Virus record (IMG/VR): IMGVR_UViG_3300045988_036009
Direction: 5' to 3' (one strand)
Length of the DNA stretch: 58,752 bases
Origin: a virus
How positions within the stretch are numbered: the stretch's first letter is position 1; every line of letters starts with the position of its first letter. The notes below the pieces were generated by a model that had not been told where the DNA came from, ran no database searches, and worked only from the letters and a program-made list of their open reading frames with translations. Below are positions 1-58,075 of the stretch, in pieces. The position numbers were made by a program, and so were the translations under genes.

Positions 1-46
1 TTCTTAGGATCCTCTTTAGGTTTGTCCTCTGGTTTCTTAGGATCCT
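1..46. repeat. Terminal overlap: nt 1-46 are identical to nt 58707-58752 (circular closure / assembly overlap)
   Basis: Both ends read ttcttaggatcctctttaggtttgtcctctggtttcttaggatcct. Collapsing the overlap joins the two adhesin fragments in frame (1073+362-46 = 1389 nt = 463 codons). Confidence 0.9.
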
Positions 47-125
47 CTTTAGGTTCCTCTTTAGGAGTTTCTTCCTTAGGTTTAGGATCTTCTTTTGGTT
101 TTTCCTCTGGTTTCTTATCCTCTAC
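1..125 (-). repeat. 33-bp coding tandem repeat (Pro/Lys/Glu/Asp-rich 11-codon units), left part, degenerating inward
   Basis: ttcttaggatcctctttaggtttgtcctctggt repeated from nt 1, followed by diverged copies. Encodes KPEDKPKEDPK-type wall-spanning linker of the adhesin. Confidence 0.8.
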
Positions 126-1073
126 CTTAGGTTTGTTTTCTCCATCGGCTTTACCGCTGCCGGTTACAAATTGATAAGGAACATCACGATATTGCGAATT
201 GAAGTTATCTGCACTAAGAACAACGCTATTCAAATAACGCTCAGCTTGTTTGATAACCTTTGTACGATAGCTAATATATAACTGATCTGAGAGTTTATCA
301 GCAGACCAAGTGAAACCATTAGTATGGAATACCGGAGCAATCTTAGTTGCTTCAGATTCTTTTTCTTTCCAAGGGTTATTCGATTCGACAGCCACCATTT
401 TAAAGGAATCTTTAACATATTCTTGGTTTTCGTCCCAAGTGTCAGCCACTTTGACATTGACAAGGTCTTTCTTAGCGTAGTTAACGCGCATTGCCCATAC
501 AATTTCGCCTGGATGTTCTGCGTCCTCGCCTCCCCATTTCATAAGAGTTTCATCTTTACCAATAACACCAGTTTTACCAGTAGTAGTTTCAACCTTACGT
601 CCATTAAAATCAAGAGCTACTTGTTGATTCTCAGAAACCTTTTCGACATTCCATTGAGTTTTGATATCAAGAGAGAATGTTTTATTTAGAGGGTGCGATT
701 CAAAGTAGTCATTGAATACAGTTGTAACTTCATTGTTATCTTTGTTTGCGGTGGCTGTACCAACTTCTGTTCCTTCGTTATTATTAACTGGGAATGTGTA
801 GTTGTTTACTAATTTGAGCTCTTGAGGCAATCCAACAGTAATGCTGTCACCTTTGTTGATTGAAATATCATCTGGGATTTGGATATCATTTACTTTGACA
901 TCTACGTCAGCGTAAATAGTATCATCAGATGTAGTTACTTCAACCGAAGGATTTTGTACACGGATCGTTGTATCATCTTTTGTTACTACAGTATCAGCTT
1001 CATTAGCCAATACGCTTGGTGCAGTCAAAAGGGCAAGTGCAATAGTTCCAGTAAATACGATAGATTTTTTCAT
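1..1073 (-). CDS. Secreted LPXTG-anchored Cna/MSCRAMM-like surface adhesin, N-terminal part (ORF runs off the left edge; C-terminal part is 58391..58752)
   Basis: ATG at 1073 preceded by AAAGGAGA. Own translation: MKKSIVFTGTIALALLTAPSVLA/NEADT (Sec signal peptide), then ...LMKWGGEDAEHPGEIVWAMRVNYAKKDLVNVKVADTWDENQEYVKDSF (collagen-binding Cna-A-type motif), then KPEDKPKEDPK repeats. The frame stays open to nt 1. Absent from the ORF track because it is not stop-bounded inside the window. Confidence 0.8.
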   Translation of the reverse strand, partial: MKKSIVFTGTIALALLTAPSVLANEADTVVTKDDTTIRVQNPSVEVTTSDDTIYADVDVKVNDIQIPDDISINKGDSITVGLPQELKLVNNYTFPVNNNEGTEVGTATANKDNNEVTTVFNDYFESHPLNKTFSLDIKTQWNVEKVSENQQVALDFNGRKVETTTGKTGVIGKDETLMKWGGEDAEHPGEIVWAMRVNYAKKDLVNVKVADTWDENQEYVKDSFKMVAVESNNPWKEKESEATKIAPVFHTNGFTWSADKLSDQLYISYRTKVIKQAERYLNSVVLSADNFNSQYRDVPYQFVTGSGKADGENKPKVEDKKPEEKPKEDPKPKEETPKEEPKEDPKKPEDKPKEDPK

Positions 1074-1086
1074 GATAGTTTCTCCT

Positions 1087-1587
1087 TTAATTTAAATAGT
1101 TCGGGTCAACTACTTCCCGAATCCAGCTCAAAGTGTCATGACCTTTATCGATTCGGTCATACACAGTATCCAATACGTCTAAAAAATAACGAACCTTATG
1201 TTCGTCAACAACAGCATCTTTATGATGATTAAACGGTTCGAAATGGATCCTTTCTCCAATGACACTCTCCATCTCATCATAATAAAATCCCTCCGCGAGA
1301 GATATAATTAACTCATCGACGATCTTTCTGACAACGAACCACAATAAGAGATTGATATCTAATATTTGTACATTCTTAGGTACTGTGAGTAATCCTGCAA
1401 TATAATTGCGATACTCAGAATCCAGACTAGTCCGTCGCCAATTTGTAATCAGTCGATCGATATACCAATCGTCGATGAAAAATAACTCTTTGAGAGGAAG
1501 TTTACGAATACTCGTAACAATATAGTCATCGAATTCTACCTTAGTCAATACCAGGGTAGATTTTCGACAACCCTCCCTTTCACGCAT
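1087..1587 (-). CDS. Hypothetical protein, tandem paralog of 1580..2065
   Basis: 166-aa ORF. The ATG overlaps the upstream stop and GGAGG lies upstream. Block ILDINLLLWFVVRKIVDELIISLAEGFYY matches VLDMDLYYLRVARRIVDNILLSMLETSYY of the neighbour. Confidence 0.7.
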   Translation of the reverse strand: MREREGCRKSTLVLTKVEFDDYIVTSIRKLPLKELFFIDDWYIDRLITNWRRTSLDSEYRNYIAGLLTVPKNVQILDINLLLWFVVRKIVDELIISLAEGFYYDEMESVIGERIHFEPFNHHKDAVVDEHKVRYFLDVLDTVYDRIDKGHDTLSWIREVVDPNYLN

Positions 1588-2065
1588 CCTCTAGTACCTC
1601 CGAATAGTACTTCTCAAACTCCTCACGGAGCTGTTTGGTATTCTTAAATACGCGACTACCATCTTGATTTTCCTCAATTCGATCAAGGAGATCTGATGTA
1701 ACCTCGTAAATAAGATTGTATTGTTCTTTCTCTGCATCTGCGTATCCAAATACAGATTTGTAATATGACGTTTCCAACATAGACAGTAGAATATTATCTA
1801 CAATCCTACGAGCTACACGCAAGTAATATAGATCCATATCCAATACGTGCATCTCTGGTGGAATGGTCATGATGAATTGATAATAAGCTTTGTAATCCTC
1901 TTGTGCAGGACACTCACCTTTATCATTCTTACCGAGCCAGGAATTAATTCCCTCCTCGATATATTGTTTAGGTACGAGTAAGAACTCGTCCAAAGACATT
2001 GCTCGAATAATGGACGTGACTGTGTCTTTGAATTCGGCAGATGTCTTAACAATAGGTGTTGCCAT
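1580..2065 (-). CDS. Hypothetical protein, tandem paralog of 1087..1587
   Basis: 161-aa ORF, TAATG stop/start overlap with the upstream gene, AAGGAG RBS. Colinear similarity to the downstream ORF. Confidence 0.7.
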   Translation of the reverse strand: MATPIVKTSAEFKDTVTSIIRAMSLDEFLLVPKQYIEEGINSWLGKNDKGECPAQEDYKAYYQFIMTIPPEMHVLDMDLYYLRVARRIVDNILLSMLETSYYKSVFGYADAEKEQYNLIYEVTSDLLDRIEENQDGSRVFKNTKQLREEFEKYYSEVLEDA

Positions 2066-2391
2066 TATTTAGTCTCCTTGTATGTTGTTGCGATACCAGT
2101 AAGAGTATCAAATATAGATTTGTCGTTTGGTACTTCTACAGTGTAGGCTTTGAATTGATAAATATACTTTTTACCGACATCTAATTTATTTATTTCACCC
2201 ATGGAAATAATCAAGAATCGCGGTGTCTTGAAATCGTGTTTATCCATGATTGCGTTTGGATTAAAAGATTTACAGTTTTTCATCATGAATTCCCAACGTT
2301 TATATGTTGTTTCTAATAATTTTTCGTTGTCACTTGATACAACCAGAGAAAGGTCATCGTTTTGTACAATTTTGTATGTAGGTGTGGTCAT
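2065..2391 (-). CDS. Hypothetical protein
   Basis: 108-aa ORF with AAAGGAGA RBS 8 nt before the ATG. First gene after the terminator at 2408..2439. Confidence 0.65.
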   Translation of the reverse strand: MTTPTYKIVQNDDLSLVVSSDNEKLLETTYKRWEFMMKNCKSFNPNAIMDKHDFKTPRFLIISMGEINKLDVGKKYIYQFKAYTVEVPNDKSIFDTLTGIATTYKETK

Positions 2392-2407
2392 TATAAAATC
2401 TCCTTTG

Positions 2408-2439
2408 AAAAAAAAATGAAAGGGGCGGTAAACCCCTTT
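2408..2439 (-). terminator. Rho-independent terminator
   Basis: Minus strand reads AAAGGGG-TTTACCG-CCCCTTT followed by CATTTTTTTTT, 5 nt after the stop of 2445..2744. Confidence 0.75.
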
Positions 2440-2444
2440 AGTGA

Positions 2445-2744
2445 TTATTTAAAAATCGCTCGTTGAATCGGACTCCAGAGCTTGGATGCGATAATTCCAG
2501 TATGCTCTACGCCGAGCACAGCAATGCCAGCAGCTCCATTAATCACGGTGTTGAAAATGTCAATTGGCTTAACCTTATGTTTTAACTCCTCATTACGGAG
2601 CGCAATAAGTCGTGCCAACCGCTTTTCAACAGCGATTTGTTCTTCTTCTGTTTTTGCGTCTCGGAGTTTGAGCTTTTCCTTCTCAATCTCGCCTTCCAAG
2701 CTATCGAATGCGATAGCGTAAACAACTTTATCAATATCTTTCAT
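2445..2744 (-). CDS. Hypothetical protein with coiled-coil N-half and C-terminal hydrophobic segment
   Basis: 99-aa ORF, AAAGGAAGG RBS. C-terminal IDIFNTVINGAAGIAVLGVEHTGIIASKLW looks membrane-associated. Confidence 0.65.
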   Translation of the reverse strand: MKDIDKVVYAIAFDSLEGEIEKEKLKLRDAKTEEEQIAVEKRLARLIALRNEELKHKVKPIDIFNTVINGAAGIAVLGVEHTGIIASKLWSPIQRAIFK

Positions 2745-2764
2745 ATTGTTTTACCTTCCTTTCA

Positions 2765-3163
2765 TTATGGCCAATGTTTTTTCTGCGAGATTTGAGGAAC
2801 AGCAGCAAAATATCCACGTACGTTTCCTTCGAAATGTTTGTACTTCGGAGGATTATTAAGTGCAATATGTCCTTCCGGACGAGTTTCATCGACAATCAAA
2901 TCATTAGAATTCAATCTGAATGATACCTCGTATGTACCATATAGTTTACCAGCACTCAAATAACAATGAGTCTTTTTATTCCGATGGAACATATCCTTGA
3001 TCATCTCATAGAGATCTTGAGTAAATGGAATACGGAATTCTACATCATATCCTGGAACGTTATCCGCATACTCATAATCGAAGTTGATAATATTATCACT
3101 CAACAACAACGACATCACTTTCTCACCATTATCACAGATAAGTCTCACAATCCCTTTTGACAT
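2765..3163 (-). CDS. Hypothetical protein
   Basis: 132-aa ORF, TAGGAGGA RBS. Confidence 0.65.
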   Translation of the reverse strand: MSKGIVRLICDNGEKVMSLLLSDNIINFDYEYADNVPGYDVEFRIPFTQDLYEMIKDMFHRNKKTHCYLSAGKLYGTYEVSFRLNSNDLIVDETRPEGHIALNNPPKYKHFEGNVRGYFAAVPQISQKKHWP

Positions 3164-3175
3164 AATATTGTCCTC

Positions 3176-3496
3176 CTATTTGTCTTCTTTCAATAGTTCT
3201 TCAAATGCGCATTCTGGAGAATAATCCAGTTTATCTCCCTCAACATCTGCCAATACCTCCTTCATACATTCGTTCTTAAGGAAGCGTTCGTTGATTTCTT
3301 TGTTACGTTTATTTGTAGCACGTCGGATAACGGCATATGACGCAACCATAATACCGGCGCTTAAGACTGAAATATATGCGCTGTGAAGCTGCTCCTGATC
3401 AATACCATCGTATTTACCTTTAAGATATACAGCGTTAGTGAAATCATCACCAAAGTCAACAGCGTCTACTTTAACAAATTTACCAAAAAGTCCCAT
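3176..3496 (-). CDS. Small single-pass membrane protein, architectural paralog of 3499..3801
   Basis: 106-aa ORF, GGAGG RBS. Layout is GKYDGID...TM (AYISVLSAGIMVASYAVI)...basic/acidic tail, the same as its neighbour. Confidence 0.65.
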   Translation of the reverse strand: MGLFGKFVKVDAVDFGDDFTNAVYLKGKYDGIDQEQLHSAYISVLSAGIMVASYAVIRRATNKRNKEINERFLKNECMKEVLADVEGDKLDYSPECAFEELLKEDK

Positions 3497-3498
3497 AA

Positions 3499-3801
3499 TT
3501 ATTTACCTCCGAAAAACATTTCTTGAAATACATTTTGTGCGCGCTCGTCTCGATGAATCTCACGAAGAACTTCATCGGATGCTTCCTGACGCAATTTACC
3601 AACGTATTTGCTAACTCCGTAAACAATACCACCGGCGATTAATCCAGCTACGGCAATGTTTAATGCACCTTTCTTAGTTTCTTTCTCAAAGGATTCGAGA
3701 GTACTAATATCGTCGAATTTCCCTTGGTATTTGGAAACCACATAAGCCATGTCTTCTTTCTCGATAGACACTTCTAACCCTAGATTATTTTTAATAATCA
3801 T
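3499..3801 (-). CDS. Small single-pass membrane protein, architectural paralog of 3176..3496
   Basis: 100-aa ORF, AAAGGAG RBS. Layout is YQGKFDDIS...TM (ALNIAVAGLIAGGIVYGV)...charged tail. Confidence 0.65.
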   Translation of the reverse strand: MIIKNNLGLEVSIEKEDMAYVVSKYQGKFDDISTLESFEKETKKGALNIAVAGLIAGGIVYGVSKYVGKLRQEASDEVLREIHRDERAQNVFQEMFFGGK

Positions 3802-4091
3802 CGCAATACTCCTTTGTTTAAAATATAGAACTAATTGATAGCTCCTATAGACATATGACCAAATCTAAAAGGAGATTTTGTAAAGTTGTATCAAACGGTG
3901 AAATATGAAAAGATAAAAAATGCAATTAGAAAACGATCTGATCATATGCCCGTAGGAACTATCAATTGTTGAGTTTATAGCCGGCTTCAGACTACACAAT
4001 AGGATTTTTGTATGAAACACAGTGTAAAGAGAGTCTCCTTCTTTAATTATTTTGTACCTAATGTGCAGTATGAAACCGGCTATGCCGATTG
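3802..4091. promoter_or_regulatory. Largest non-coding gap (290 bp) with long-range inverted repeats; candidate regulatory / origin-like region
   Basis: 26-bp arms 3833..3858 (aattgatagctcctatagacatatga) and 3942..3967 are 22/26 complementary with an 83-bp spacer. A second 8-bp pair, atagccgg 3977..3984 / ccggctat 4076..4083. No ORF over 30 codons. Confidence 0.4.
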
Positions 4092-4400
4092 TTATTTAAT
4101 ATTGTAAATAGATTCTATATCACGAAGAGGAATATTTCTATACCCCATGACATAGTGTACTAAATCCATTTTTGTATGTATATCGTATATAGTATTCGGT
4201 GAAACGTCTAAATTATAAGCATTTGGAATTTGATTAGTCTTTGCTAATCCCGCAAAAGACACACCGCCCGCAATTACAAACTTGACATAAAAATCGCCTT
4301 TGATAGGATATGCGTATACCTTTGACAATCCTCCGTCTTTAGCAACAATAGGATTCTGTCTATTGATTTGAGTTGGTCGGGTGTGAAATTTGATTTCCAT
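4092..4400 (-). CDS. Hypothetical protein
   Basis: 102-aa ORF with AAGGAGGA RBS. Last gene before the 290-bp gap. Confidence 0.65.
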   Translation of the reverse strand: MEIKFHTRPTQINRQNPIVAKDGGLSKVYAYPIKGDFYVKFVIAGGVSFAGLAKTNQIPNAYNLDVSPNTIYDIHTKMDLVHYVMGYRNIPLRDIESIYNIK

Positions 4401-4614
4401 TCAAGTCCTCCTTGATTCTAATTAACTCGTTTTCAAGCGTATCTATTTCCTCCTGTTGTTTACCAATAGTACGCTCCAATCGTTGCATGCGAGTTTCCTC
4501 GATTTGGTGTTCACGGAATACTTGAGGTATCATATATGACACAACCAACAACACGCCAACAATTGTGATTGCGATAGACCATGCATATCCACGGTCACTT
4601 TTTGAGTGATCCAT
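4360..4614 (-). CDS. Small N-terminal-TM plus coiled-coil protein
   Basis: 84-aa ORF. TM segment YAWSIAITIVGVLLVVSYMI followed by heptad-like EETRMQRLERTIGKQQEEIDTLENELIRIKEDL. Weak RBS. Confidence 0.55.
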   Translation of the reverse strand: MDHSKSDRGYAWSIAITIVGVLLVVSYMIPQVFREHQIEETRMQRLERTIGKQQEEIDTLENELIRIKEDLNGNQISHPTNSNQ

Positions 4615-4858
4615 TCTTCGCTCTTTCTAACTCGAGTTGTTGCTTGTAATAAGTTGCCGCCTTGTCTCGAGTTTCCCAGCGGGCCTTATACATTTGTATT
4701 TGTTGATCTTTCGATAAGATCTTCTGCTCATATGTATGAGTGAAAGATATAAGAATACCAATAAAGCATAGCCAAGTAAGTCCTTGAATCAGCCATTTGA
4801 TTTTCTTCTCATCTCGCTCCATATCTCTCACAATAATCTCAATTGAAAATTCGTCCAT
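4595..4858 (-). CDS. Small TM plus coiled-coil protein
   Basis: Start moved to the internal ATG at 4858 (MDEFSIE...), which follows CAAAGGAGGTAGAC. TM segment WLIQGLTWLCFIGILISF, then a coiled coil. Confidence 0.6.
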   Translation of the reverse strand: MDEFSIEIIVRDMERDEKKIKWLIQGLTWLCFIGILISFTHTYEQKILSKDQQIQMYKARWETRDKAATYYKQQLELERAKNGSLKK

Positions 4859-4876
4859 GTCTACCTCCTTTGACAG

Positions 4877-4905
4877 AAAAAAGAAAGATACTAAATGTAC
4901 CTTTC
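4877..4905 (-). terminator. Rho-independent terminator directly abutting the RBS of 4595..4858
   Basis: Minus strand reads GAAAGGTAC-ATTTA-GTATCTTTC followed by TTTTTT, then CTGTCAAAGGAGGTA. The same 21-nt junction occurs at 6443..6463. Confidence 0.6.
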
Positions 4906-4999
4906 GCCATTTTATAGTGCTCGAATAATCCATAGCATAATCTTATAGAATATACCATAGAATACAAATTCAAACAACCATTTAATTGCTTTTAACATT

Positions 5000-5182
5000 T
5001 TAGTATCCTTCATTTCTAAGTTTCTTAAGTACTTTATGTACAGTATTTAAACGTTCACGGTGTGGTCCCTCGTCTGATACCATATATCCTTGCTTAACCA
5101 ATCTCTCAATATGAGATTCCTCAAGCACTGCGTATATAGATAAGCAGCGAAAACCAATTTCTCTAAACATTTTTCTGAACAT
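5000..5182 (-). CDS. Hypothetical small protein
   Basis: 60-aa ORF directly downstream of cassette copy P1 with its AAGGAGG RBS. Confidence 0.6.
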   Translation of the reverse strand: MFRKMFREIGFRCLSIYAVLEESHIERLVKQGYMVSDEGPHRERLNTVHKVLKKLRNEGY

Positions 5183-5210
5183 AATAAGTTCCTCCTTAAA
5201 TTATCTTTTC

Positions 5211-5235
5211 ATTATATAACGTGTAATTTCTGCGG
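5211..5235 (-). promoter_or_regulatory. Conserved promoter/leader cassette, copy P1
   Basis: Minus strand reads CCGCAGAAATTACA-CGTTA-TATAAT-GAAAAGATAATTTAAGGAGG-N9-ATG(5182). Overlaps the 3' end of 5212..5493. Confidence 0.65.
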
Positions 5236-5493
5236 AGGCATACCTTTCCAGCAGTCCTCTAAAGGAGCTCCTACAGGAACCGCTAGCAATTTATACTTCT
5301 TGCGAATATCGTTGATCTGTCTATAGATCTCACGAATACGCCATCTCGCCCAATCGCTTGGTCTAAATGTCCATCGTATACCATTCCACCGATGGATTGC
5401 ATCGCTAATAGTATCATAATATACATTAGTACTATCAAACAATAAATAAATCATATCTGTGTCGTTCAAATTAGTATACTTAATTGCTCCCAT
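5212..5493 (-). CDS. Hypothetical protein
   Basis: Start moved to the ATG at 5493 (MGAIKYTNL...), preceded by CAGGAGGGTAAT, 1 nt after the upstream stop. Confidence 0.6.
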   Translation of the reverse strand: MGAIKYTNLNDTDMIYLLFDSTNVYYDTISDAIHRWNGIRWTFRPSDWARWRIREIYRQINDIRKKYKLLAVPVGAPLEDCWKGMPPQKLHVI

Positions 5494-5494
5494 A

Positions 5495-5704
5495 TTACCC
5501 TCCTGGAAATTGTACTTTACGATTGATATTAACCAATACCTCATTATGATAGTCCAACAGCTTTTGCTGAGATTCTATCTTATACTCTAGTTTCTCTATT
5601 CGCTTGTCTTGGTCGGCAATTATACCGGCCATGATTAAATATAGTATGAAGAATCCCACTATACAAAATCCTATTAGTTTGAAATTACGATCTTCCAAAT
5701 CCAT
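5495..5704 (-). CDS. Small N-terminal-TM plus coiled-coil protein
   Basis: 69-aa ORF, GGAGG RBS. TM segment LIGFCIVGFFILYLIMAGII, then KRIEKLEYKIESQQKLLDYHNEVL. Confidence 0.6.
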   Translation of the reverse strand: MDLEDRNFKLIGFCIVGFFILYLIMAGIIADQDKRIEKLEYKIESQQKLLDYHNEVLVNINRKVQFPGG

Positions 5705-5720
5705 CTCTAACCTCCATTCT

Positions 5721-5754
5721 AAAAAAAATAAAGCTAGGTGTATAACCTAACTTT
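5721..5754 (-). terminator. Rho-independent terminator
   Basis: Minus strand reads AAAGTTAGG-TTATACA-CCTAGCTTT followed by ATTTTTTTT. Overlaps the stop codon of 5753..5950. Confidence 0.7.
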
Positions 5755-5950
5755 ATTTTTGATCTGTATTTGCAAATCGCAACACATTAACAGCAATAAT
5801 ACAAAGTCCTCCAACAATAACAGTTCCGTCTACCATCCCTTGAGCAAAACCTTTCATGCAACCTTTAACTAAGCTGTCTTCAGGTTTAACCTCAAGTTTA
5901 GTACCTTCGTAATTGTATAGTCCAAATAGACCTTTATTAATATTGAACAT
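5753..5950 (-). CDS. Small hydrophobic-C-terminus protein
   Basis: Start moved to the ATG at 5950 (MFNINKGLFG...), which carries the cassette RBS AAAGGAGGAACATATT. C-terminal GTVIVGGLCIIAVNVL is hydrophobic. Confidence 0.6.
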   Translation of the reverse strand: MFNINKGLFGLYNYEGTKLEVKPEDSLVKGCMKGFAQGMVDGTVIVGGLCIIAVNVLRFANTDQK

Positions 5951-5978
5951 AATATGTTCCTCCTTTAAATATCTTTTC

Positions 5979-6005
5979 ATTATAGTGTTTGTAATTTCTG
6001 CGAAA
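5979..6005 (-). promoter_or_regulatory. Conserved promoter/leader cassette, copy P2
   Basis: Minus strand reads TTTCGCAGAAATTACA-AACAC-TATAAT-GAAAAGATATTTAAAGGAGG-N8-ATG(5950). Starts right after the stop of 6006..6440. Confidence 0.65.
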
Positions 6006-6440
6006 CTAATATACTTTAGCAAAATCGTATAAGTCACTATCCGACATATACTCGCCTTTGTTGTTAACACTCAACCTAGGGAATTGCATCTCCCCAGAGT
6101 CGATAATATCGCCAAGAGTATCTACATACGCCCTAACCACCATTAGTAAGTTAGGTGCGTCTTTCTTAGATACAAACGCCGTCTGAGCTGTTAGATTCGG
6201 ATTAGGGTTCGGTGTGTGAATATAGATCCCATCGAAATATGATCGATCTGGATCCACGTAACCACGCAACACAATAAGTTGGTCATTAACCGTCATGTTG
6301 ATATATAACTCAATCCTATCTAACTTCTCGTTGTACTCACCCATAATATACTTATATTTAATTGAATATACTGTAGGGATTCTACGAATATTTCCTCTTG
6401 GCTTTCCTTTAGTCTTCTTTCTGACTTTGCTTACTGCCAT
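6006..6440 (-). CDS. Hypothetical basic-N-terminus protein
   Basis: Start moved to the ATG at 6440 (MAVSKVRKKTKGKPRG...), preceded by CAAAGGAGGTAAT. Confidence 0.6.
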   Translation of the reverse strand: MAVSKVRKKTKGKPRGNIRRIPTVYSIKYKYIMGEYNEKLDRIELYINMTVNDQLIVLRGYVDPDRSYFDGIYIHTPNPNPNLTAQTAFVSKKDAPNLLMVVRAYVDTLGDIIDSGEMQFPRLSVNNKGEYMSDSDLYDFAKVY

Positions 6441-6457
6441 ATTACCTCCTTTGACAG

Positions 6458-6481
6458 AAAAAAAAGAGGACAATTGTCCTC
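6458..6481 (-). terminator. Rho-independent terminator directly abutting the RBS of 6006..6440
   Basis: Minus strand reads GAGGACAATTGTCCTC followed by TTTTTTTT, then CTGTCAAAGGAGGTAAT-ATG. Lies 6 nt after the stop of 6488..6853. Confidence 0.75.
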
Positions 6482-6487
6482 GTAGAA

Positions 6488-6853
6488 TTATTTGTGCATA
6501 CTGAATAATTTAGCAGTCAATACCTCAACACCGATATACCAATGCCAATAAATTCGCCATACGGCCCAAATATCACCCGTGTCTTCATAGTGAAATACGT
6601 TTGCCATAATTCGGCTTACGTTGTATTCGATCTTAGAAAGAATCTTAAATTCCTTCTGACCCACAACATGCGCCTTATAAACAGACATTTCAATTTCCTG
6701 TGCAGTATCACGGATAAGTTCAATAGCCTTATCACGTTCCTTATTGTCAATTAGTTTTCGAATAAGTCCTGACCTTTTATTTACAATACGTTTAAGTAAT
6801 AAACCTACGCGTACATAATTGTCGTCTTTTGTGAAAGTTCGTGTATATAGCAT
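6488..6853 (-). CDS. Hypothetical protein
   Basis: 121-aa ORF served by cassette copy P3 and AAAGGAGG RBS. Confidence 0.65.
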   Translation of the reverse strand: MLYTRTFTKDDNYVRVGLLLKRIVNKRSGLIRKLIDNKERDKAIELIRDTAQEIEMSVYKAHVVGQKEFKILSKIEYNVSRIMANVFHYEDTGDIWAVWRIYWHWYIGVEVLTAKLFSMHK

Positions 6854-6879
6854 AATTGCTACCTCCTTTATATCTTTTC

Positions 6880-6909
6880 ATTATAGCACTTGTAAAGAGT
6901 GCGAAAAAA
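6880..6909 (-). promoter_or_regulatory. Conserved promoter/leader cassette, copy P3 (diverged upstream block)
   Basis: Minus strand reads TTTTTTCGCACTCTTTACA-AGTGC-TATAAT-GAAAAGATATAAAGGAGG-N8-ATG(6853). Confidence 0.6.
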
Positions 6910-6978
6910 GAAGAAGAGATGGAGTTGAACCATCGACAACCGTGGTGTTCGGTGCTCTCCCGCTGAGCTATCTTCTTC
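6910..6978 (-). ncRNA. Degenerate tRNA-like element (canonical acceptor, D and T arms; shortened anticodon arm)
   Basis: Minus strand reads (G)AAGAAGA-TA-GCTC-AGCGGGA-GAGC-ACCG-AACACCA-CGGT-TGTC-GATGG-TTCAACT-CCATC-TCTTCTT-(C), then TTTTTT. There is a perfect 7-8 bp acceptor helix and textbook TAGCTCAGCGGGAGAGC and GGTTCAACTCC boxes. Only 19 nt separate the D and T stems, where 22-23 are expected, so the anticodon stem is 3-4 bp and the loop AACACCA lacks U33. Confidence 0.5.
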
Positions 6979-7010
6979 ATTATAGTGTGTGTAATTTATG
7001 CGAAAAAAAA
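6979..7010 (-). promoter_or_regulatory. Conserved promoter/leader cassette, copy P4 (abuts the tRNA-like element)
   Basis: Minus strand reads TTTTTTTTCGCATAAATTACA-CACAC-TATAAT-G, followed immediately by AAGAAGATAGCTC. There is no RBS and no ORF. Confidence 0.55.
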
Positions 7011-7082
7011 GAATAGGCTATAAATTTAACCATCCGGAATCGAACCGGCATTTATATAAGCTTCCTCTCGCGGTACCTATCC
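7011..7082 (-). ncRNA. 72-nt stem-closed structured RNA candidate containing a tRNA T-arm-like hairpin
   Basis: Minus strand reads GGATAGG...TATAAAT-GCCGGTTCGATTCCGG-ATGGTTAA-ATTTATA-G-CCTATTC followed by TTTTTTTT. The outer 7-bp helix is GGATAGG/CCTATTC and the inner 7-bp helix is TATAAAT/ATTTATA. The GGTTCGATTCC box is present. It begins 5-6 nt after the -10 of P5 and has no ORF. Confidence 0.45.
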
Positions 7083-7087
7083 TCTTC

Positions 7088-7118
7088 ATTATAGTGTATG
7101 TAATTTCTGCGAAAAAAA
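7088..7118 (-). promoter_or_regulatory. Conserved promoter/leader cassette, copy P5
   Basis: Minus strand reads TTTTTTTCGCAGAAATTACA-TACAC-TATAAT-GAAGAGGATAGG. The T-run is shared with the terminator of 7143..7559. Confidence 0.6.
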
Positions 7119-7137
7119 GAAAGGGACTTGTGTCCCT
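7112..7137 (-). terminator. Rho-independent terminator
   Basis: Minus strand reads GGGAC-ACAA-GTCCC followed by TTTCTTTTTTT, 5 nt after the stop of 7143..7559. Confidence 0.7.
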
Positions 7138-7142
7138 CAACT

Positions 7143-7559
7143 CTATAGTGATTTATAGAAGTTAACTAATTCATCAGTATCTTTCTCAACTTCTTTAACT
7201 CGTTGATTAATTTGCTCACAAATTTCTTTTACTTCCTTTTCATCAATATCGTTGATTTTCACAAATCCCATTTCTAGATTAGTAGAAATATTTTCCATTG
7301 TGTTCCATGTATCATATACTTTGTAACTACGTGTAAACACTTCTTCATAAGTAACGCAATCCAATAAAGTTTTGAGTTCGCTTCTTATTCTTTTATAAAG
7401 ATTTCGATAATATTCTTTAATGTATAAACTAGCAGTACTATGCGCTAGTCCAATACTCATTAATTTCTCTAACATCTTTTCTAAGTCATAATCCTCGTAC
7501 ATCAAAGCTAATTTGATCATGTTTTCTTGATTTAGTGTAAGTTGTTGTTTTTCAGTCAT
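7143..7559 (-). CDS. Hypothetical protein
   Basis: 138-aa ORF served by cassette copy P6 (AAGGAGGG RBS). Confidence 0.7.
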   Translation of the reverse strand: MTEKQQLTLNQENMIKLALMYEDYDLEKMLEKLMSIGLAHSTASLYIKEYYRNLYKRIRSELKTLLDCVTYEEVFTRSYKVYDTWNTMENISTNLEMGFVKINDIDEKEVKEICEQINQRVKEVEKDTDELVNFYKSL

Positions 7560-7588
7560 GATAATGACCCTCCTTAAATTATCTTTTC

Positions 7589-7617
7589 ATTATCAACCCT
7601 GTAATTTCTGCGAAAAA
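7589..7617 (-). promoter_or_regulatory. Conserved promoter/leader cassette, copy P6
   Basis: Minus strand reads TTTTTCGCAGAAATTACA-GGGTT-GATAAT-GAAAAGATAATTTAAGGAGGG-N9-ATG(7559). Confidence 0.6.
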
Positions 7618-7638
7618 GAAGGGAGCCATGTAGGCCCC
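7613..7638 (-). terminator. Probable rho-independent terminator after the lysin operon
   Basis: Minus strand reads GGGGCCT-ACAT-GGCTCCC followed by TTCTTTTT, which merges into P6. Lies 6 nt after the stop of 7645..8184. Confidence 0.55.
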
Positions 7639-7644
7639 GCTTCA

Positions 7645-8184
7645 TTAGTAACGTAGAGGATCGATAGCTCTCTTATATTTGGTCTTAGCTTTGCTCTTTT
7701 CCAGTTTGGTGGTAGCGCTAGCTTTTTCCTTTTTATATTGAGCTTTAGCCGCTTTATTCTTTTCTAGGTTACGAACTTGCCGCTCGAGTAATCCGGTTGC
7801 GCTATTATTCTTCTTATAGTTGTCCTTAAGTTTCTTAAGCGCAGCATTACGAGATTCCCAGTTCTTATTCTCTAGTTTGGCAATCTTCTTATTATCGCCT
7901 TTCATACGACCAATACGATCTTCCTTATCCGCGTATTCAGCTTTCAATTTCTTCTTATCAGCCTTATACTTCTTCTTGTCACGCCAATATTGCAAATTGG
8001 TTTTTGTTTTTGCTTTTGATGATAGAAATGGGTGCGTGTAAGAATTAACATAAATCTTACCGACGTTACCAGCAGCTCGAACTGCTTTACGAACACCCCA
8101 CTTCATACCTTTTGTTCCGAAATGAAGTAATACATCATCCATATTATCAACGTGGACCAATTGACCTTCTTCAATCAGTTTCAT
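7645..8184 (-). CDS. Basic protein of the HxGxKGMKWG-motif family (member E)
   Basis: 179 aa. N-terminus ...DDVLLHFGTKGMKWGVRK followed by a Lys-rich (KKKYKADKKKLKAEY...) tail. The ATGA start overlaps the endolysin stop. Confidence 0.75.
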   Translation of the reverse strand: MKLIEEGQLVHVDNMDDVLLHFGTKGMKWGVRKAVRAAGNVGKIYVNSYTHPFLSSKAKTKTNLQYWRDKKKYKADKKKLKAEYADKEDRIGRMKGDNKKIAKLENKNWESRNAALKKLKDNYKKNNSATGLLERQVRNLEKNKAAKAQYKKEKASATTKLEKSKAKTKYKRAIDPLRY

Positions 8185-8918
8185 AGTTTACCTTCCATAT
8201 CTTCAGCATCATCAAGATAGTTGTCGTCAATCCATTGCGCAGATTGCGGTGAACCGATACGAGAATATCCGTCAACCTTCTCATAGACACGCACACGAGA
8301 ACCTTTCTTGAATAGTTCTTTTTCTTCAGCACCAGCGAATGGTTGAGCTTCAACCCAATAGTCCTCTGTGATAGTCGCTTCATAATATGGTTGTTCGCTT
8401 GATGGTAGATGTGTACCAACATTCAACTCATGCTCGAAGCTGTTTTCAGCCATCTCAAGTTGAGGAGGGTTAGGGACACGAGCTCCACCGTTGTAACGAT
8501 AGAAGTAGAAGTATGGTTGACCATTATAACCCCAGATTTCATCGTGGTTATTTCGAGTAATACCATTATATCCATAGTTACAGTGGATAATAGTTCCTTC
8601 TGAGTCTAGGAAAATACCTGTGTGACCAAATGCCCCAGCGGAATATCCTTTTTGTCCCCAGATGAAAATATCACCAGCTTGTACGTCAGCTTCCTCATTT
8701 TCTGCCAACAGTACCCAGCCATTTTGCAACAACCAGTCGTGCATTGTCTCAGTCGAACAAGGCCAAGGTAGAGTACTCATGCCACCGGCTACACCAGCAT
8801 AATACATTGATGATGAACAGTCAAATGAGTCTGGGCCTGTACGATGCAACATGGAATATGTCACTCGTCCTTCACGAGCGACCATCCATGCAATCATCAG
8901 TGCGGGATTTACTGTCAT
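8181..8918 (-). CDS. Endolysin: Pal-type (Amidase_5 family) N-acetylmuramoyl-L-alanine amidase with C-terminal SH3-like wall-binding domain
   Basis: The N-half ...GRVTYSMLHRTGPDSFDCSSSMYYAG...GDIFIWGQKGYSAGAFGHTGIF...IIHCNYGYNGI...GQPYFYFYRY is colinear with the pneumococcal phage Dp-1 Pal amidase module as I remember it. The C-terminal 80 aa look SH3b-like. GGAGGA RBS. Confidence 0.8.
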   Translation of the reverse strand: MTVNPALMIAWMVAREGRVTYSMLHRTGPDSFDCSSSMYYAGVAGGMSTLPWPCSTETMHDWLLQNGWVLLAENEEADVQAGDIFIWGQKGYSAGAFGHTGIFLDSEGTIIHCNYGYNGITRNNHDEIWGYNGQPYFYFYRYNGGARVPNPPQLEMAENSFEHELNVGTHLPSSEQPYYEATITEDYWVEAQPFAGAEEKELFKKGSRVRVYEKVDGYSRIGSPQSAQWIDDNYLDDAEDMEGKL

Positions 8919-8932
8919 ATTAAGTTCCTCCG

Positions 8933-9334
8933 TTAAATTTGTGGTTTGGTTTTCAATGATGACATCTTATTCACTTTGTTTGCTCGAGCTTTCCATTGAG
9001 CAACACGATCTTTTCTAGATTTTACTTTATCGTCAATCAATTTACCATAGGCGTTCTTTTGGAATTTTTCCATCATTTGACGAGTAACTTTATTTTTACC
9101 ATAAATCTTCTCAAGGGTCTTATAGTCTTCAGGGCCATTAAGAGCTTGAGTATCTTTGTATGATTTGATCATGGTTCTATCGCGCCAGTCATCTTTTCGT
9201 TCCTGATCGGTAGCTACGTCTAGGGGTAACATTTCCCGTCCTTCAATGTCCGCACGATTTTTACGCCATTTCATACCCTTTTTACCATAGTGTTGGATTA
9301 CGCTGCGTGAGTCGTCAATTGCTGTGTATGCCAT
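8933..9334 (-). CDS. Basic protein of the HxGxKGMKWG-motif family (member D, diverged)
   Basis: 133 aa. N-terminus ...SRSVIQHYGKKGMKWRKNR, with a Lys/Arg-rich remainder. GGAGGA RBS. Confidence 0.7.
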   Translation of the reverse strand: MAYTAIDDSRSVIQHYGKKGMKWRKNRADIEGREMLPLDVATDQERKDDWRDRTMIKSYKDTQALNGPEDYKTLEKIYGKNKVTRQMMEKFQKNAYGKLIDDKVKSRKDRVAQWKARANKVNKMSSLKTKPQI

Positions 9335-27973: not shown

Positions 27974-28333
27974 TTATTTTAGATAGTCTTTCAAGACTTT
28001 ATCGATTGCAGATTTGTAGGCCGAATCGATAGCTTTAATAATATATGGGTGTGGAGGAACATAGCCTCCCGTACCAGTTCCGTGACCATAGTGAATTATT
28101 ATAGCGATATTAACACCCTTATTAATATGAGTGTTAAATATCTCTAGTTCTTCACCACGACCAGTTTTGTTGATTTTATAACCCCACGAATTAGCTGTTT
28201 TACCAGATTTGTATGGAGTTGCGGCTTTTAGAGCCTCGACAATAGCTTTACCTAGTGCATCTAAAGAGACCCTTCGATCTCTCTTTAAATACTTTTCTAG
28301 ATTATTGAACGAACCGCTTGTTGTTATTCTCAT
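27974..28333 (-). CDS. HK97 gp10-like head-tail/tail-completion family protein
   Basis: 119 aa. ...ALKAATPYKSGKTANSWGYKI...IAIIIHYGHGTGTGGYVPPHPYIIKA matches the gp10-family pattern (TP..tG.l..sw ... yG ... PF/Y..A). Confidence 0.6.
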   Translation of the reverse strand: MRITTSGSFNNLEKYLKRDRRVSLDALGKAIVEALKAATPYKSGKTANSWGYKINKTGRGEELEIFNTHINKGVNIAIIIHYGHGTGTGGYVPPHPYIIKAIDSAYKSAIDKVLKDYLK

Positions 28334-38909: not shown

Positions 38910-41522
38910 CTATGATAGATCCTGTACAGTAGACACACTGATACCTAGTGCATCAGCTACTTCTGCATAGGTGTGACCGTTCTTAAGCATGGTCTTAGCA
39001 CGACTAGCAGTAGATAGGCTAATAGACTTCTCTGTACGTGGTGTAGCTAGCTGCTTAACACGATCACTATCAGCGAATCGTAGTACATCAGTTAGCATCT
39101 TACTAGAGACAGCCCCAGATTGAATAGCTTTCCACTCATCATCGTCAATAGAGATGCGTGTAGACTTACCATCAGCACCAGTCTTAACACGGGCTGCTGC
39201 AATAGCCTGTTGTTTAAGCTTCTTGAGCTGGTCTTTGCTCATGTCAGGAGTACGTTTTTCAGCAATAGTCTTGTTAGCCATGAGCTGAGCTTGACGTTCT
39301 CTAGGAGAGTTGTACAAAGCGTCGTTAAGCTTCTTCTGTAGAGACTCAACTTGTGTCTTGTACTTGACTTTAGCATCCTTAGACATGGTCATGTTAGGCG
39401 TCTTGCTAATGATAGACTCACCTTTTGTACGCATCTTACCAAGAGCATTAATGTAATTACCATACATGTTCTCAATAGCTGTACCAGAACCTAGTTTCTT
39501 AGCATCATCTACCATATCAACAATAGGTGTAAATGAAATGGTTTTAGTTTTCTTGATCTTAGGAGCTAATCTAGGATTAGCAGCTAGTTCTTCAGCAGTT
39601 CTTTCCTTATACCAATGCTCGGTCTCACGATAGTCGGTCTTCGATCTAGAAATAAGAGTTGATGCTCCGCTGGATATCTTTCCTGTTACAACATCATAGT
39701 GTTCTTGATATTTCTTTTTAAGCTGGTCTATATTATTCTCTCTTTCAGAACGTTTATAATCCAAGCTATGTTTTTCAGCATCAATAACAACCATTGAATG
39801 TTTAACAGCTCTAGCAATTTCAGATTGAGATGCGCCTTTAAGAGTCATATCAGTAATAAGATTCGATACAACTCCCATTTGTTTTTGCGTATCAATCTTC
39901 GGTGGCTTAGGAGTATAATAACTTTTCGAATCGAAGTTCTTTAATTCTTTTAAAGAACGACTAGTTTTAATTCCATTATTGTTGTTAGGAATAACCATAA
40001 CTGAGTCACCATCGAAATCAGCACCAGATAATTTAGATGCTACAGATGAATCAATACCGATTGCATCCTTTGCACCCTTCATAAATTTAGCCGGGCCTTT
40101 ATCAAGTTTATTATTAACAGTTAATTCTGGTAACTCGAAAATACCACCATGAGGATAACGAACAAGTACAACCTTTTCTCCATTCTTAAAGTTAGGAGCA
40201 TATACTTCATTAGCTTTAATACCAGATAAAGGTAATAATACTTGTCCTTTCATTCTGTCAAACCCAACCATTTTAAGATGTTGTCGTTTAACAGTGAGGC
40301 CATCAACAAAATCCTGCATCATAACTTTCTTGACTACTGGATTTGTTAAGGCATTGATCTCTTCAAACTCTTTCTTTAATTTATCGTATGTCTTTTCGAT
40401 ACGACCTTTAACCAAAGCTGGTGGTTGTTTAGATAAGAATTGTGAAGATAATGTTTTCGACCAAGAATTCCAATCGCCTTCCTCATTAACTTTATTAATA
40501 GCTCCAGCTTGTTTCTTGATCGTTGCACCAAATGGATTATCCGGATCATCTTTTAAAGGTTTGAGAACTTTTTCTTTAGGAGTTCCTTGTTTCTTGTTGG
40601 TGTTGAAAATAACATCGACACCTTTAGGGAAGTCTTTTGGATCTCCATAAATAGCCATACCTTTTAAATAATGAGTTCCGTTTACACCGATACGAACCTG
40701 AGCATATCTGGATTTACCTAAGTCCAAGTCTTTTACTCCTGGACGTAATTCCATTACACCATCTTTATCCGTACCGCCTTGCTCGTCATATCGAATACCT
40801 ACACGTTTCCAATCAATATGTTGAATAGGTTTCAATCCCAGTGAGGATTTACCTTCAGCATCTGTATGAATATGAGGAGGTGTGATTTCATGCTTGTGTT
40901 CCCTAACAACAGCAGGGTCTGCTTCTTTAGTTAACACTTTCATTTCAACCCAGTGATCATCATTTGTAGCATTCTTAACATATACTGTATGCCTGTGATA
41001 TCCTTCGGATTCCAATTGTTGTACAGCACGTTTAAGAGTACTTTCATTCACACCAAGTTGTTGTGCAGAACCTAAACCAACGTCAAGATATGGATTCTTT
41101 TCAATAAGACCTTTAATATCAGTCTTAATTTGTTCCATGCGATTTACATTGTTACGTACTTTCGCATCTAAATTCATACGAACAGTTGATTCAGGAATAC
41201 CCGTTCTACGAGATATCTCAATAGATCCTAAACCTTGATCGGCGAGCTCTTGAATTCGACTAATATTGTATAATCGAATTTCATGCTTAGCAATATTATT
41301 CCGTTTACGGAATTCAGTAGTTGTAATACCGAGCTTCATAGCAATTTGCGTATCAGATAATCCTGATCGCCTGTATTTAACAACTCTGTCGGACCATGAA
41401 GTAGCCCGCTGAAATGAATTCTCGCCAGATCCCCAAGCATATCGTCCACTATGTGGAATACTACCTTGGTGCGGGGTTCCTCTATGTTCGAGCATATCAC
41501 TATATGCTTCTTCCAAGTTCAT
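38910..41522 (-). CDS. Candidate single-subunit two-barrel RNA polymerase (YonO-like) with N- and C-terminal HTH modules
   Basis: 870 aa. aa 499-512 SGADFDGDSVMVIPN (nt 40005..40019 encode DFDGD) resemble the beta-prime loop NADFDGDQMAVH. aa about 455-475 KVVLVRYPHGGIFELPELTV resemble beta-prime LLNRAPTLHRLGIQAFEP. HTH-like segments: LSDTQIAMKLGITTTEFRKR, GSIEISRRTGIPESTVRMNL, LGVNESTLKRAVQQLESEG and C-terminal HTYAEVADALGISVSTVQDLS. Confidence 0.55.
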   Translation of the reverse strand: MNLEEAYSDMLEHRGTPHQGSIPHSGRYAWGSGENSFQRATSWSDRVVKYRRSGLSDTQIAMKLGITTTEFRKRNNIAKHEIRLYNISRIQELADQGLGSIEISRRTGIPESTVRMNLDAKVRNNVNRMEQIKTDIKGLIEKNPYLDVGLGSAQQLGVNESTLKRAVQQLESEGYHRHTVYVKNATNDDHWVEMKVLTKEADPAVVREHKHEITPPHIHTDAEGKSSLGLKPIQHIDWKRVGIRYDEQGGTDKDGVMELRPGVKDLDLGKSRYAQVRIGVNGTHYLKGMAIYGDPKDFPKGVDVIFNTNKKQGTPKEKVLKPLKDDPDNPFGATIKKQAGAINKVNEEGDWNSWSKTLSSQFLSKQPPALVKGRIEKTYDKLKKEFEEINALTNPVVKKVMMQDFVDGLTVKRQHLKMVGFDRMKGQVLLPLSGIKANEVYAPNFKNGEKVVLVRYPHGGIFELPELTVNNKLDKGPAKFMKGAKDAIGIDSSVASKLSGADFDGDSVMVIPNNNNGIKTSRSLKELKNFDSKSYYTPKPPKIDTQKQMGVVSNLITDMTLKGASQSEIARAVKHSMVVIDAEKHSLDYKRSERENNIDQLKKKYQEHYDVVTGKISSGASTLISRSKTDYRETEHWYKERTAEELAANPRLAPKIKKTKTISFTPIVDMVDDAKKLGSGTAIENMYGNYINALGKMRTKGESIISKTPNMTMSKDAKVKYKTQVESLQKKLNDALYNSPRERQAQLMANKTIAEKRTPDMSKDQLKKLKQQAIAAARVKTGADGKSTRISIDDDEWKAIQSGAVSSKMLTDVLRFADSDRVKQLATPRTEKSISLSTASRAKTMLKNGHTYAEVADALGISVSTVQDLS

Positions 41523-44064: not shown

Positions 44065-44155
44065 GATAATGTCCCTTTCTATTTTGACGTGATTGACAAA
44101 TTGCAACAAAAAATAAAAGAAGCGCGAAAATCGTTGAATTTTCTTGTTCCTTTCT

Positions 44156-44182
44156 ATTATGTGCCATGTAATTTCTGCGAAG
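44156..44182 (-). promoter_or_regulatory. Conserved promoter cassette, copy P7 (upstream block intact, leader diverged)
   Basis: Minus strand reads CTTCGCAGAAATTACA-TGGCA-CATAAT, followed by a 91-nt leader containing a T-rich tract before ATG(44064). Confidence 0.55.
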
Positions 44183-58050: not shown

Positions 58051-58075
58051 ATTATAGTATGTGTAATTCCTGCGG
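58051..58075 (-). promoter_or_regulatory. Conserved promoter/leader cassette, copy P8
   Basis: Minus strand reads CCGCAGGAATTACA-CATAC-TATAAT-GAAACGAAATAAAAGGAGG-N7-ATG(58023). Starts right after the stop of 58077..58391. Confidence 0.6.

Follow-up and report, generated by a model that had tools for sequence, protein, structure and literature searches.

A repeated cassette in a 58.7-kb virus genome as the probable promoter of a phage-encoded two-barrel RNA polymerase with helix-turn-helix modules

Phage polymerases with promoters of their own are a known kind, and here we propose such a pair for a family of two-barrel RNA polymerases with fused helix-turn-helix (HTH) modules. The DNA concerned is the viral stretch IMGVR_UViG_3300045988_036009 (58,752 nt in full, called the window in the following). 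A short cassette recurs on its minus strand, which also carries all long open reading frames (ORFs). In phages of two bacterial phyla this motif accompanies the polymerase gene, and we therefore regard the cassette as the probable cognate promoter of the phage's own 870-aa RNA polymerase and not as one used by the host enzyme.

Several described systems are comparable. Promoters of the T7/T3/SP6 class likewise occur as many near-identical copies of a single uninterrupted element of 23-30 bp extending across the start site, with an A/T 'TATA' element just upstream of +1 and a +1 G followed by a purine-rich start, and they are inherited together with the polymerase gene. However, the motif described here reaches further upstream, to -24, and its polymerase is predicted to have a two-barrel (QDE-1-like) fold unrelated to the right-hand fold of T7. 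A likeness to the SP6 promoter (ACACTATA..GAAGAG) was rejected as coincidence: it concerns three of nine copies, involves a spacer that varies within the family and is shifted in register by 2 nt, and the folds of the two polymerases are unrelated. T4 middle promoters consist of a MotA box and a -10 element. They share with the cassette the lack of a -35 and a phage-specific block upstream of a -10-like hexamer, but in our case only 5 bp separate block and hexamer, some of the hexamers do not suit sigma, and the start would fall right after the hexamer.

Among solved phage structures, those most similar to the predicted core of our polymerase belong to the two-barrel polymerases of Thermus phages P23-45 and P74-26 (gp64/gp62 non-virion, gp96 virion). 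There, 5'-end sequencing mapped a separate conserved promoter motif for each of the phage polymerases (10.1101/2022.12.01.518664). Differences are that no sequence similarity is detectable, that the Thermus phage motifs are AT-rich and GC-rich, and that the promoter here is read from sequence alone; the term helix-turn-helix does not occur in the text of that paper. Phage genes are also transcribed by YonO of the Bacillus prophage SPbeta, a two-barrel polymerase made of a single chain. It starts upstream of a non-coding RNA, and its promoter is stated as unknown (PMC5467207). A profile of 40 sequences of our polymerase family has no similarity to YonO (hhalign, probability 1%), and the window protein is therefore not classed as YonO-like. 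The 1.7-kb non-coding gap between yonN and yonK of SPbeta (NC_001884, minus strand) holds no motif copy, only GAAATTACATACCC without a hexamer. This string, located where YonO reportedly starts, matches the window block plus the spacer of Lactococcus phage P092, but is not followed by TATAAT and is probably a chance match.

In the cluster DJ Gordonia phages Vardy and Conley, five intergenic copies of a 50-bp or 43-base motif with TATAAT were reported from the central small-gene region and interpreted as a sigma-70 -10 which 'may regulate gene expression' (PMC9671010, PMC10868162). This is very probably the same element as the cassette, which is also carried by the cluster DJ phage Gravy. Unlike the present analysis, these papers do not connect the motif with the phage polymerase, with other clusters or with Firmicute phages, and they infer no start site. 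A polymerase with terminal HTH domains was earlier predicted by HHpred (95.7%) in this phage group, with nothing on promoters (10.1101/842583). We found no literature linking the motif to the polymerase family or noting its cross-phylum conservation, although most subscription journals lay outside the search and this is no proof of absence. Papers that mention YonO together with promoters contain none on this polymerase family.

The first-pass annotation of the window had listed eight cassette copies oriented for minus-strand transcription, and all of them were recovered in place by reading the minus strand, by a 13-mer search and by alignment. The exact 13-mer CGCAGAAATTACA is found five times on the minus strand (5222, 5990, 7099, 7600 and 44167), and with one mismatch at 6990 and 58062; the expected chance count of a 13-mer is about 0.002 in 2 x 58.7 kb. 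The number of copies is far above chance. The eight-site alignment yields the consensus CGCAGAAATTACA-N5-TATAAT-GAA, with a diverged upstream block at 6880-6903 (CGCACTCTTTACA). As annotated, TATAAT is perfect in six of the eight copies (exceptions: GATAAT at 7589, CATAAT at 44156), TTCGCA lies 14 bp from the hexamer, and neither the alignment nor a consensus scan shows a TTGACA-like hexamer at 16-18 bp. A position weight matrix made from the eight copies scores them at 40-49 bits. Run over the window, it reports a weaker ninth site (2752-2791, 23.9 bits), while the best site beyond these nine reaches 9 bits only. The ninth copy, absent from the earlier list, has an ortholog with the same leader in the closest relative, the saliva phage D_HF5_2C. 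All nine copies have A at position 2 and T at position 6 of the hexamer. The putative promoter copies are:

7589..7612, minus strand: P1, CGCAGAAATTACA-gggtt-GATAAT, 46.0 bits; predicted +1 G at 7588; would drive ORF 7143-7559.
7088..7111, minus strand: P2, CGCAGAAATTACA-tacac-TATAAT, 48.1 bits; predicted +1 G at 7087; would drive a small RNA and no protein.
6979..7002, minus strand: P3, CGCATAAATTACA-cacac-TATAAT, 43.0 bits; predicted +1 G at 6978; would drive a tRNA-like RNA.
6880..6903, minus strand: P4, diverged CGCACTCTTTACA-agtgc-TATAAT, 40.2 bits; would drive ORF 6488-6853.
5979..6002, minus strand: P5, 49.1 bits; would drive a small ORF (ATG 5950, stop 5753).
5211..5234, minus strand: P6, 46.4 bits; overlaps the 3' end of ORF 5212-5544; would drive ORF 5000-5182.
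2764..2787, minus strand: ninth, weaker copy, CGCAGAAAAAACA-ttggc-CATAAT-GAAAGGAAGG, 23.9 bits; would drive ORF 2445-2744.
44156..44179, minus strand: P7, CATAAT followed by AGA; heads an operon of single-stranded DNA-binding/annealing protein, helicase, exonuclease and RNA polymerase.
58051..58074, minus strand: P8, CGCAGGAATTACA-catac-TATAAT, 44.2 bits; heads a block of small ORFs of unknown function, ATG at about 58023.

The 36.5 kb downstream of P7, comprising the polymerase, packaging, structural and lysis genes, are without a further copy in the matrix scan.

The polymerase of the window has relatives in 250 phage records according to tblastn, among them phages of Arthrobacter (95), Gordonia (55), Streptomyces (54), Lactococcus (13) and Rhodococcus (4) as well as Microbacterium, Curtobacterium and Faecalibacterium phages and saliva-derived contigs; metagenome protein sets contribute at least 8,000 homologues. 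The closest relative is that of D_HF5_2C (78% identity), and the polymerases of the compared genomes are 40-46% identical. Otherwise no nucleotide similarity was found between these genomes, and a megablast search of the region against phage genomes gave no match. Nevertheless, the motif is present in all eight polymerase-encoding genomes compared, which represent seven host groups, with 5-14 same-strand copies per relative and a shared coding-strand architecture CGC(R)-N3-A/T-rich-ACA-N5-TATAAT-G-A. The hosts of the relatives examined are Lactococcus, Faecalibacterium, Arthrobacter, Gordonia and Streptomyces, the remaining phages being saliva-derived:

D_HF5_2C (saliva phage): 9 copies, same sequence type as the window.
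Lactococcus phage P092: 10 copies, TTTAAGTTTTACA-taccc-TATAAT-GA.
Arthrobacter phage Mudcat: 7 copies, CGCGTAAATTACA-cgggc-TATAAT-GA.
Gordonia phage Gravy: 10 copies, three of them with the exact 13-mer of the window.
Saliva phage contig89: 5 copies.
Streptomyces phage Scap1: 7 copies, CGCAAGTTTTACA-N5-TATAGT/TGTAGT/TATGAT-GAGACCCC.
Faecalibacterium phage FP_oengus: 14 copies, CGCGAAAAATACA-N5-CTTTAT-GGA.

Motif and polymerase thus co-occur in phages of two phyla, Actinobacteria and Firmicutes. Copies in the relatives cluster where the small-ORF block starts, after the tail and lysis genes. In six of seven relatives a copy also lies ahead of the polymerase-containing operon; none was found in Gravy, where the pattern may have missed one. 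A variant with AGA after the hexamer precedes the polymerase operon in D_HF5_2C, P092 and Scap1 alike. Recent duplication of one cassette, which had been offered as an explanation of the copies, is not tenable, since the architecture, including the identical 13-mer in three Gordonia phage copies, recurs across the two phyla in otherwise dissimilar polymerase-encoding phages.

In a family logo that gives each genome equal weight, C-G-C-R at -24 to -21 is followed by an A/T-rich run, C (0.98) and A at -13/-12 and C at -7. Within the hexamer, T at positions 3 and 6 (0.97-0.98) is better conserved than A at position 2 (0.82), and after it +1 G (0.89), +2 A (0.77) and A at +4 are conserved. In 431 unique sites on IMG/VR viral contigs, +1 is G in 87% and +2 is A in 88%. 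The motif is thus a multi-copy contiguous consensus that includes the predicted initiating nucleotides (conserved -24 to -21, -13/-12, -6 to -1, and +1, +2 and +4). P092 is exceptional in two respects. It is the only genome with promoters lacking the CGC box, and its polymerase is the only one whose second N-terminal HTH lacks the recognition-helix motif E-S-[ST]-[VI]-R, having PGSVT instead. This double exception fits HTH modules that read the promoter, although as a single contrast it is a weak pointer.

The specificity of the motif was addressed by further searches. A blastn search of 50,697 phage genomes with a 42-nt copy from a Gordonia phage returned 112 records: Gordonia 55, Streptomyces 42, Arthrobacter 10, Rhodococcus 4 and D_HF5_2C. 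All these groups are on the polymerase list, and the Gordonia and Rhodococcus counts are the same as those of the polymerase tblastn search. The pattern CGCAGNAWTTNCA-N5-TATAATGA occurs in at least 120 IMG/VR stretches, many on contigs of 56-59 kb, and in only 30 stretches within 596 Gb of bacterial and archaeal genomes, where more than one copy is seen only on two contigs of phage size and on three short fragments. Judged from the eight genomes, the blastn genera and the bacterial genome scan, the motif is confined to lineages that bear the polymerase. The IMG/VR motif stretches are short; a family marker was seen in 40 of 120 and the polymerase in 3 of 120. One of the two phage-sized contigs from the bacterial genomes, CAURMP010000001.1 (57,216 bp), has four motif copies and is binned with an uncultured Streptococcus. 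It is the sole pointer to the host of the window, and a weak one, which agrees with the saliva origin of the closest relative and with 38-40% G+C.

The transcripts expected from two of the cassettes bear on the position of the start site. Copies at 6979 and 7088 are followed by neither a ribosome-binding site nor an ATG; instead, small RNAs follow directly, so that the view that all cassettes serve small accessory genes fails for these two:

6910..6978, minus strand: tRNA-like RNA, Rfam tRNA 46.2 bits (match 6910-6977, cut-off 29), cloverleaf fold.
7009..7087, minus strand: second small RNA, T-arm-like hairpin GCCGGUUCGAUUCCGG, closing stem from nt +4, ending in a U-run.

Folded from the G right after TATAAT, the tRNA-like RNA adopts the cloverleaf as its minimum-free-energy structure. 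Its 8-bp closing stem begins at this G, and the 3' strand of the stem runs into the U-tract. The anticodon arm is not standard (4-bp stem, loop AACACCA, no U33). ARAGORN makes no call in the window and also misses the tRNA-like genes of most relatives, whose anticodon arms are likewise shortened. The second small RNA has no Rfam match. In the window, D_HF5_2C and FP_oengus the closing stems of the tRNA-like RNAs start 1-3 nt past the hexamer. Among 449 IMG/VR motif sites there are 25 distinct downstream sequences with a T-loop-like motif, and 18 of them have a closing stem from nt 1-4 and end in a U-run; at least three of the remaining seven are protein-coding leaders. As the stems begin 1-4 nt past the hexamer, transcription most likely starts at the G that immediately follows it. 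A sigma-70-type start about 7 nt downstream (range 5-9) would remove most of the 5' strand of these stems, and the RNA genes, as indirect evidence, therefore do not bear out the start at 5-9 nt after TATAAT that had been expected. The nine conserved nucleotides that had been noted as the first transcribed (GAAAAGATA) are very similar to the 5' strand of the closing stem in the tRNA-like RNA (GAAGAAGATAGC).

As for the polymerase itself, the gene is placed as follows:

38910..41522, minus strand: gene of an 870-aa protein, predicted to be a two-barrel (QDE-1-like) RNA polymerase; HTH modules: three at the N-terminus and one, similar to sigma region 4, at the C-terminus.

The ORF matches PHROG 4291, 'RNA-dependent RNA polymerase' (E-value 5e-299), and over the catalytic loop Pfam RdRP PF05183 with 21.1 bits, below the cut-off of 23.8. 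The HTH modules occupy residues 42-175 and 831-868. The metal-binding DxDGD loop reads GADFDGD (residues 500-506) and is invariant in 40 homologues; the longer LSGADFDGD is invariant in eight diverse relatives and in the 40-sequence alignment. An AlphaFold model of the core (residues 232-670, pLDDT 78, pTM 0.65) was compared with the PDB. It matches Neurospora QDE-1 (1.4e-9), gp62 of Thermus phage P74-26 (8f5m, 6e-6), plant RDR2 (about 1e-5) and P23-45 gp96 (8h2n, 1e-4), and because of these matches the product is assigned, as far as a predicted structure allows, to the QDE-1-like branch of two-barrel polymerases. Matches to AR9 beta' (0.011), crAss-like gp66 (0.033) and cellular beta' subunits (0.011 and above) are not significant. 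Sequence and profile searches of the PDB with the polymerase gave HTH matches only, plus AR9 beta' at E 0.37, and a search of BFVD, a set of predicted viral protein structures, with the full-length model gave only another unannotated 'RdRP'.

We infer that transcription from the motif is begun by the phage polymerase and not by the host enzyme, and likewise the exact +1 position and the HTH domain that would read each promoter box. The promoter would span about -24 to +4: a CGC(R) box at -24 to -21, an A/T-rich stretch, a near-invariant C-A at -13/-12, a variable 5-bp spacer, TATAAT at -6 to -1 and a start at the conserved G that comes next (G-A-R-A). The fused HTH modules would bind the two upstream boxes, CGC and TTACA, which are 10 bp or one helical turn apart and thus on one face of the helix. 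The A/T hexamer beside the start site would act as a melting element, which the polymerase opens before starting at the following G. From the nine copies, short transcription units would begin where the small-ORF block opens behind the lysis genes. Each unit would consist of a small ORF preceded by a ribosome-binding leader of its own, or of a tRNA-like RNA, and many would end in intrinsic terminators whose U-tract adjoins the next promoter. The variant copy with hexamer plus AGA, leader hairpin and U-run would head the recombination-protein/polymerase operon and lead into the packaging, structural and lysis genes. For the first round of transcription, a polymerase delivered with the virion, weak host recognition of TATAAT copies or an overlooked host promoter may be considered. 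Virion-delivered polymerases exist in N4, in P23-45 and in crAss-like phages. We further put forward, tentatively and with some doubt, that the 870-aa protein is a self-sufficient, sigma-independent polymerase whose HTH modules read CGC at -24 and TTACA at -16 to -12 and which starts at G after the TATAAT melting element. It would form a one-protein system with a promoter of about 30 bp in phages of Actinobacteria and Firmicutes, maybe delivered with the virion and transcribing the whole genome without host RNA polymerase.

A number of points weigh against a promoter of the phage polymerase. The polymerase gene itself stands behind such a promoter, and neither the consensus scan nor a strict search gave a convincing sigma-A promoter in intergenic coding-strand DNA, so that the first polymerase molecules would need another source. 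In six of eight lineages the hexamer agrees fully with the sigma-A -10 consensus, which would be a strange coincidence were sigma-A not involved. Full-length precursors of the tRNA-like RNAs could in principle be supplied by upstream read-through, and the searchable literature holds no 5'-end or transcription data for the window phage or any relative. On the side of the protein, the full-length AlphaFold model (pLDDT 73) has no significant PDB match, the YonO profile comparison was negative as given above, and the assignment of boxes to HTH modules is weakly suggested by one lineage contrast, that of P092.

An alternative is that the host sigma-A holoenzyme uses TATAAT as a true -10 while a phage activator on the CGC...TTACA block replaces the missing -35 contact, in the manner of sigma appropriation or of a class-II activator as at T4 middle promoters. 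The part of the activator might be played by the HTH modules of the 870-aa protein or by a different conserved HTH protein. TATAAT is perfect in most lineages, the conserved block would come to lie at -30 to -18 in the sigma-70 frame, roughly the place of the MotA box, and the motif at early-region genes would be accounted for, with the bootstrapping solved only partly. Two genome announcements of cluster DJ Gordonia phages read the motif in this way (PMC9671010, PMC10868162). Yet the hexamer varies in a manner that does not suit sigma-A. In FP_oengus it is CTTTAT in 11 of 14 copies, with A at position 2 in none of the 14, and in Scap1 it is TGTAGT, again without this A, in two of seven copies. 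Sigma-70-family proteins flip out the adenine at -11 when they recognise the -10 element; FP_oengus and part of the Scap1 copies lack its equivalent and keep the rest of the motif. Moreover, the tRNA-like RNAs begin 1-4 nt past the hexamer, +1 G and +2 A are conserved immediately after it, and a single activator would have to suit the sigma-A of Actinobacteria and Firmicutes alike. The sole protein found to travel with the motif has a polymerase active site that appears intact from sequence and model. We therefore regard an activator-assisted host promoter as unlikely. The first-pass alternative of a -35-independent host promoter with an operator is made less likely, whereas the suggestion of a dedicated recognition factor, possibly the HTH modules of the 38910-41522 protein, is the option favoured by the comparative evidence.

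That the copies are plain, strong '-10 only' promoters of host sigma-A, alike through duplication and shared ancestry, is very improbable. The position at the head of an early-looking small-ORF region right after the lysis genes would suit them, as would the perfect TATAAT of most copies and the nearly identical leaders of four. However, the upstream block is kept at set positions across two phyla while the 5-bp spacer and the flanks vary, and a conserved block between free sequences points to selection, not to recent duplication. A -35 is missing, and a TGn-extended -10 (TGnTATAAT) is found in one of the nine window copies, the TG being absent from the other eight; the hexamer variants and RNA 5' ends contradict this explanation as well. 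The consensus scan found 29 sigma-A promoters in comparison with 32 expected from shuffles; such sites are thus not enriched, and the scan assigned no -35 to the cassettes. The strict coding-strand candidates are intragenic only. Plain sigma-A promoters were rejected on these grounds, in line with the earlier view that the cassettes are not ordinary independent sigma-A promoters. Even less credible is a repeat that is no promoter at all, i.e., a recombination or homing target, a site for a packaging or replication protein or an RNA processing signal. A multi-copy strand-specific motif for which no binder has been shown so far would permit it, but the copies always lie on the coding strand directly upstream of a ribosome-binding leader with ATG or of an RNA gene, often directly 3' of a terminator, and none occurs in the 36.5 kb that hold the genes for polymerase, packaging, structure and lysis.

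The probable promoters of the phage polymerase are followed by leaders of different kinds. The leader GAAAAGATA..AAGGAGG-N7-9-ATG, described earlier for the cassettes in general, is found after the copies at 7589, 6880, 5979 and 5211; it is diverged at 58051 (GAAACGAAATAAAAGGAGG) and does not apply to 6979, 7088 and 44156. In the 92-nt leader of copy 44156, a hairpin with a U-run comes first and then a ribosome-binding site, before the ATG at 44063:

44108..44154, minus strand: leader hairpin plus U-run, AGAAAGGA...UCUUUU AUUUUUU, from nt +2 of the P7 transcript.

The hairpin is kept in D_HF5_2C with compensatory changes (AGAAAGG/CUUCUUU vs AGAGAGG/CCUCUCU), and hairpin and U-run may constitute an attenuator for the expression of the polymerase and the late genes. 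Terminator-like hairpins are enriched in positions 1-9000 (13 found vs 4.8 expected), and two of them adjoin cassettes:

7622-7638, minus strand: intrinsic-terminator-like hairpin, U-tract adjoining P1.
7121..7138, minus strand: intrinsic-terminator-like hairpin, U-tract adjoining P2.
6466-6481, minus strand: intrinsic-terminator-like hairpin.

The reported fusion of terminator U-tracts to cassettes is apparent at the first two of these hairpins, and in addition the T-runs that end both small RNAs adjoin the next two cassettes. Three further units (2397-2422, 4862-4887 and 6443-6468, minus strand) open with the same terminator U-tract plus CTGTCAAAGGAGG and have no promoter copy, so that they would depend on read-through of the preceding terminator.

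The tRNA-like RNA genes of the phage family have short or abnormal anticodon arms and are bounded exactly by the promoter +1 and the U-run; ARAGORN misses them or reports 'tRNA-???' with a 2-nt anticodon. Given these bounds, the 5' strand of the closing stem (GAAGAAGA) would double as the initial transcribed sequence. The RNAs might serve as anticodon-nuclease decoys, mimics or primers.

Some observations concern the genome as a whole. Both ends of the window (4-147 and 58611-58742) share 33-nt coding repeats, and one repeat-rich ORF spans the junction. On account of these shared repeats, the window probably represents an entire genome of about 58.7 kb in circularly permuted form, comparable to D_HF5_2C, which is circular with 57.8 kb, and the small-ORF block running from 7600 to 1 would then carry on from 58752 to 48100. 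Five small ORFs on the minus strand (7645-8184, 8933-9334, 27431-27958, 28330-28743 and 36085-36489) have a common 25-aa N-terminal motif, IQHFGTKGMKWGVRK, corresponding to Pfam DUF7211. They are scattered in the lysis, tail and packaging modules, with one weak PHROG match to 'virion structural protein'. The N-terminus of the polymerase (LxHYGTPRHSGRYPWGSG in the family) resembles a distant form of this motif, although the matches are partial and below threshold, in two relatives only; the motif could represent a shared targeting signal. A 2,766-aa tape-measure-like protein (19117-27417, minus strand) contains five tandem 177-nt (59-aa) repeats at 23494-24248; in P23-45 the tape-measure protein carries a fused polymerase domain.

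The polymerase family includes many SEA-PHAGES actinophages as well as human oral and gut phages, and the searched literature describes no activity, promoter or start site for it. With a defined promoter consensus, the enzyme can be put directly to the test, for which a single purified protein and a short template suffice. If the proposal is true, annotations of a 'sigma-70 -10' motif in these phages need re-reading, and a possible orthogonal expression system for Gram-positive bacteria of two phyla would be at hand. It would also show how a minimal two-barrel polymerase finds its promoters without sigma, through built-in HTH modules, and would bear on the evolution of promoter recognition in the lineage ancestral to the cellular RNA polymerases.

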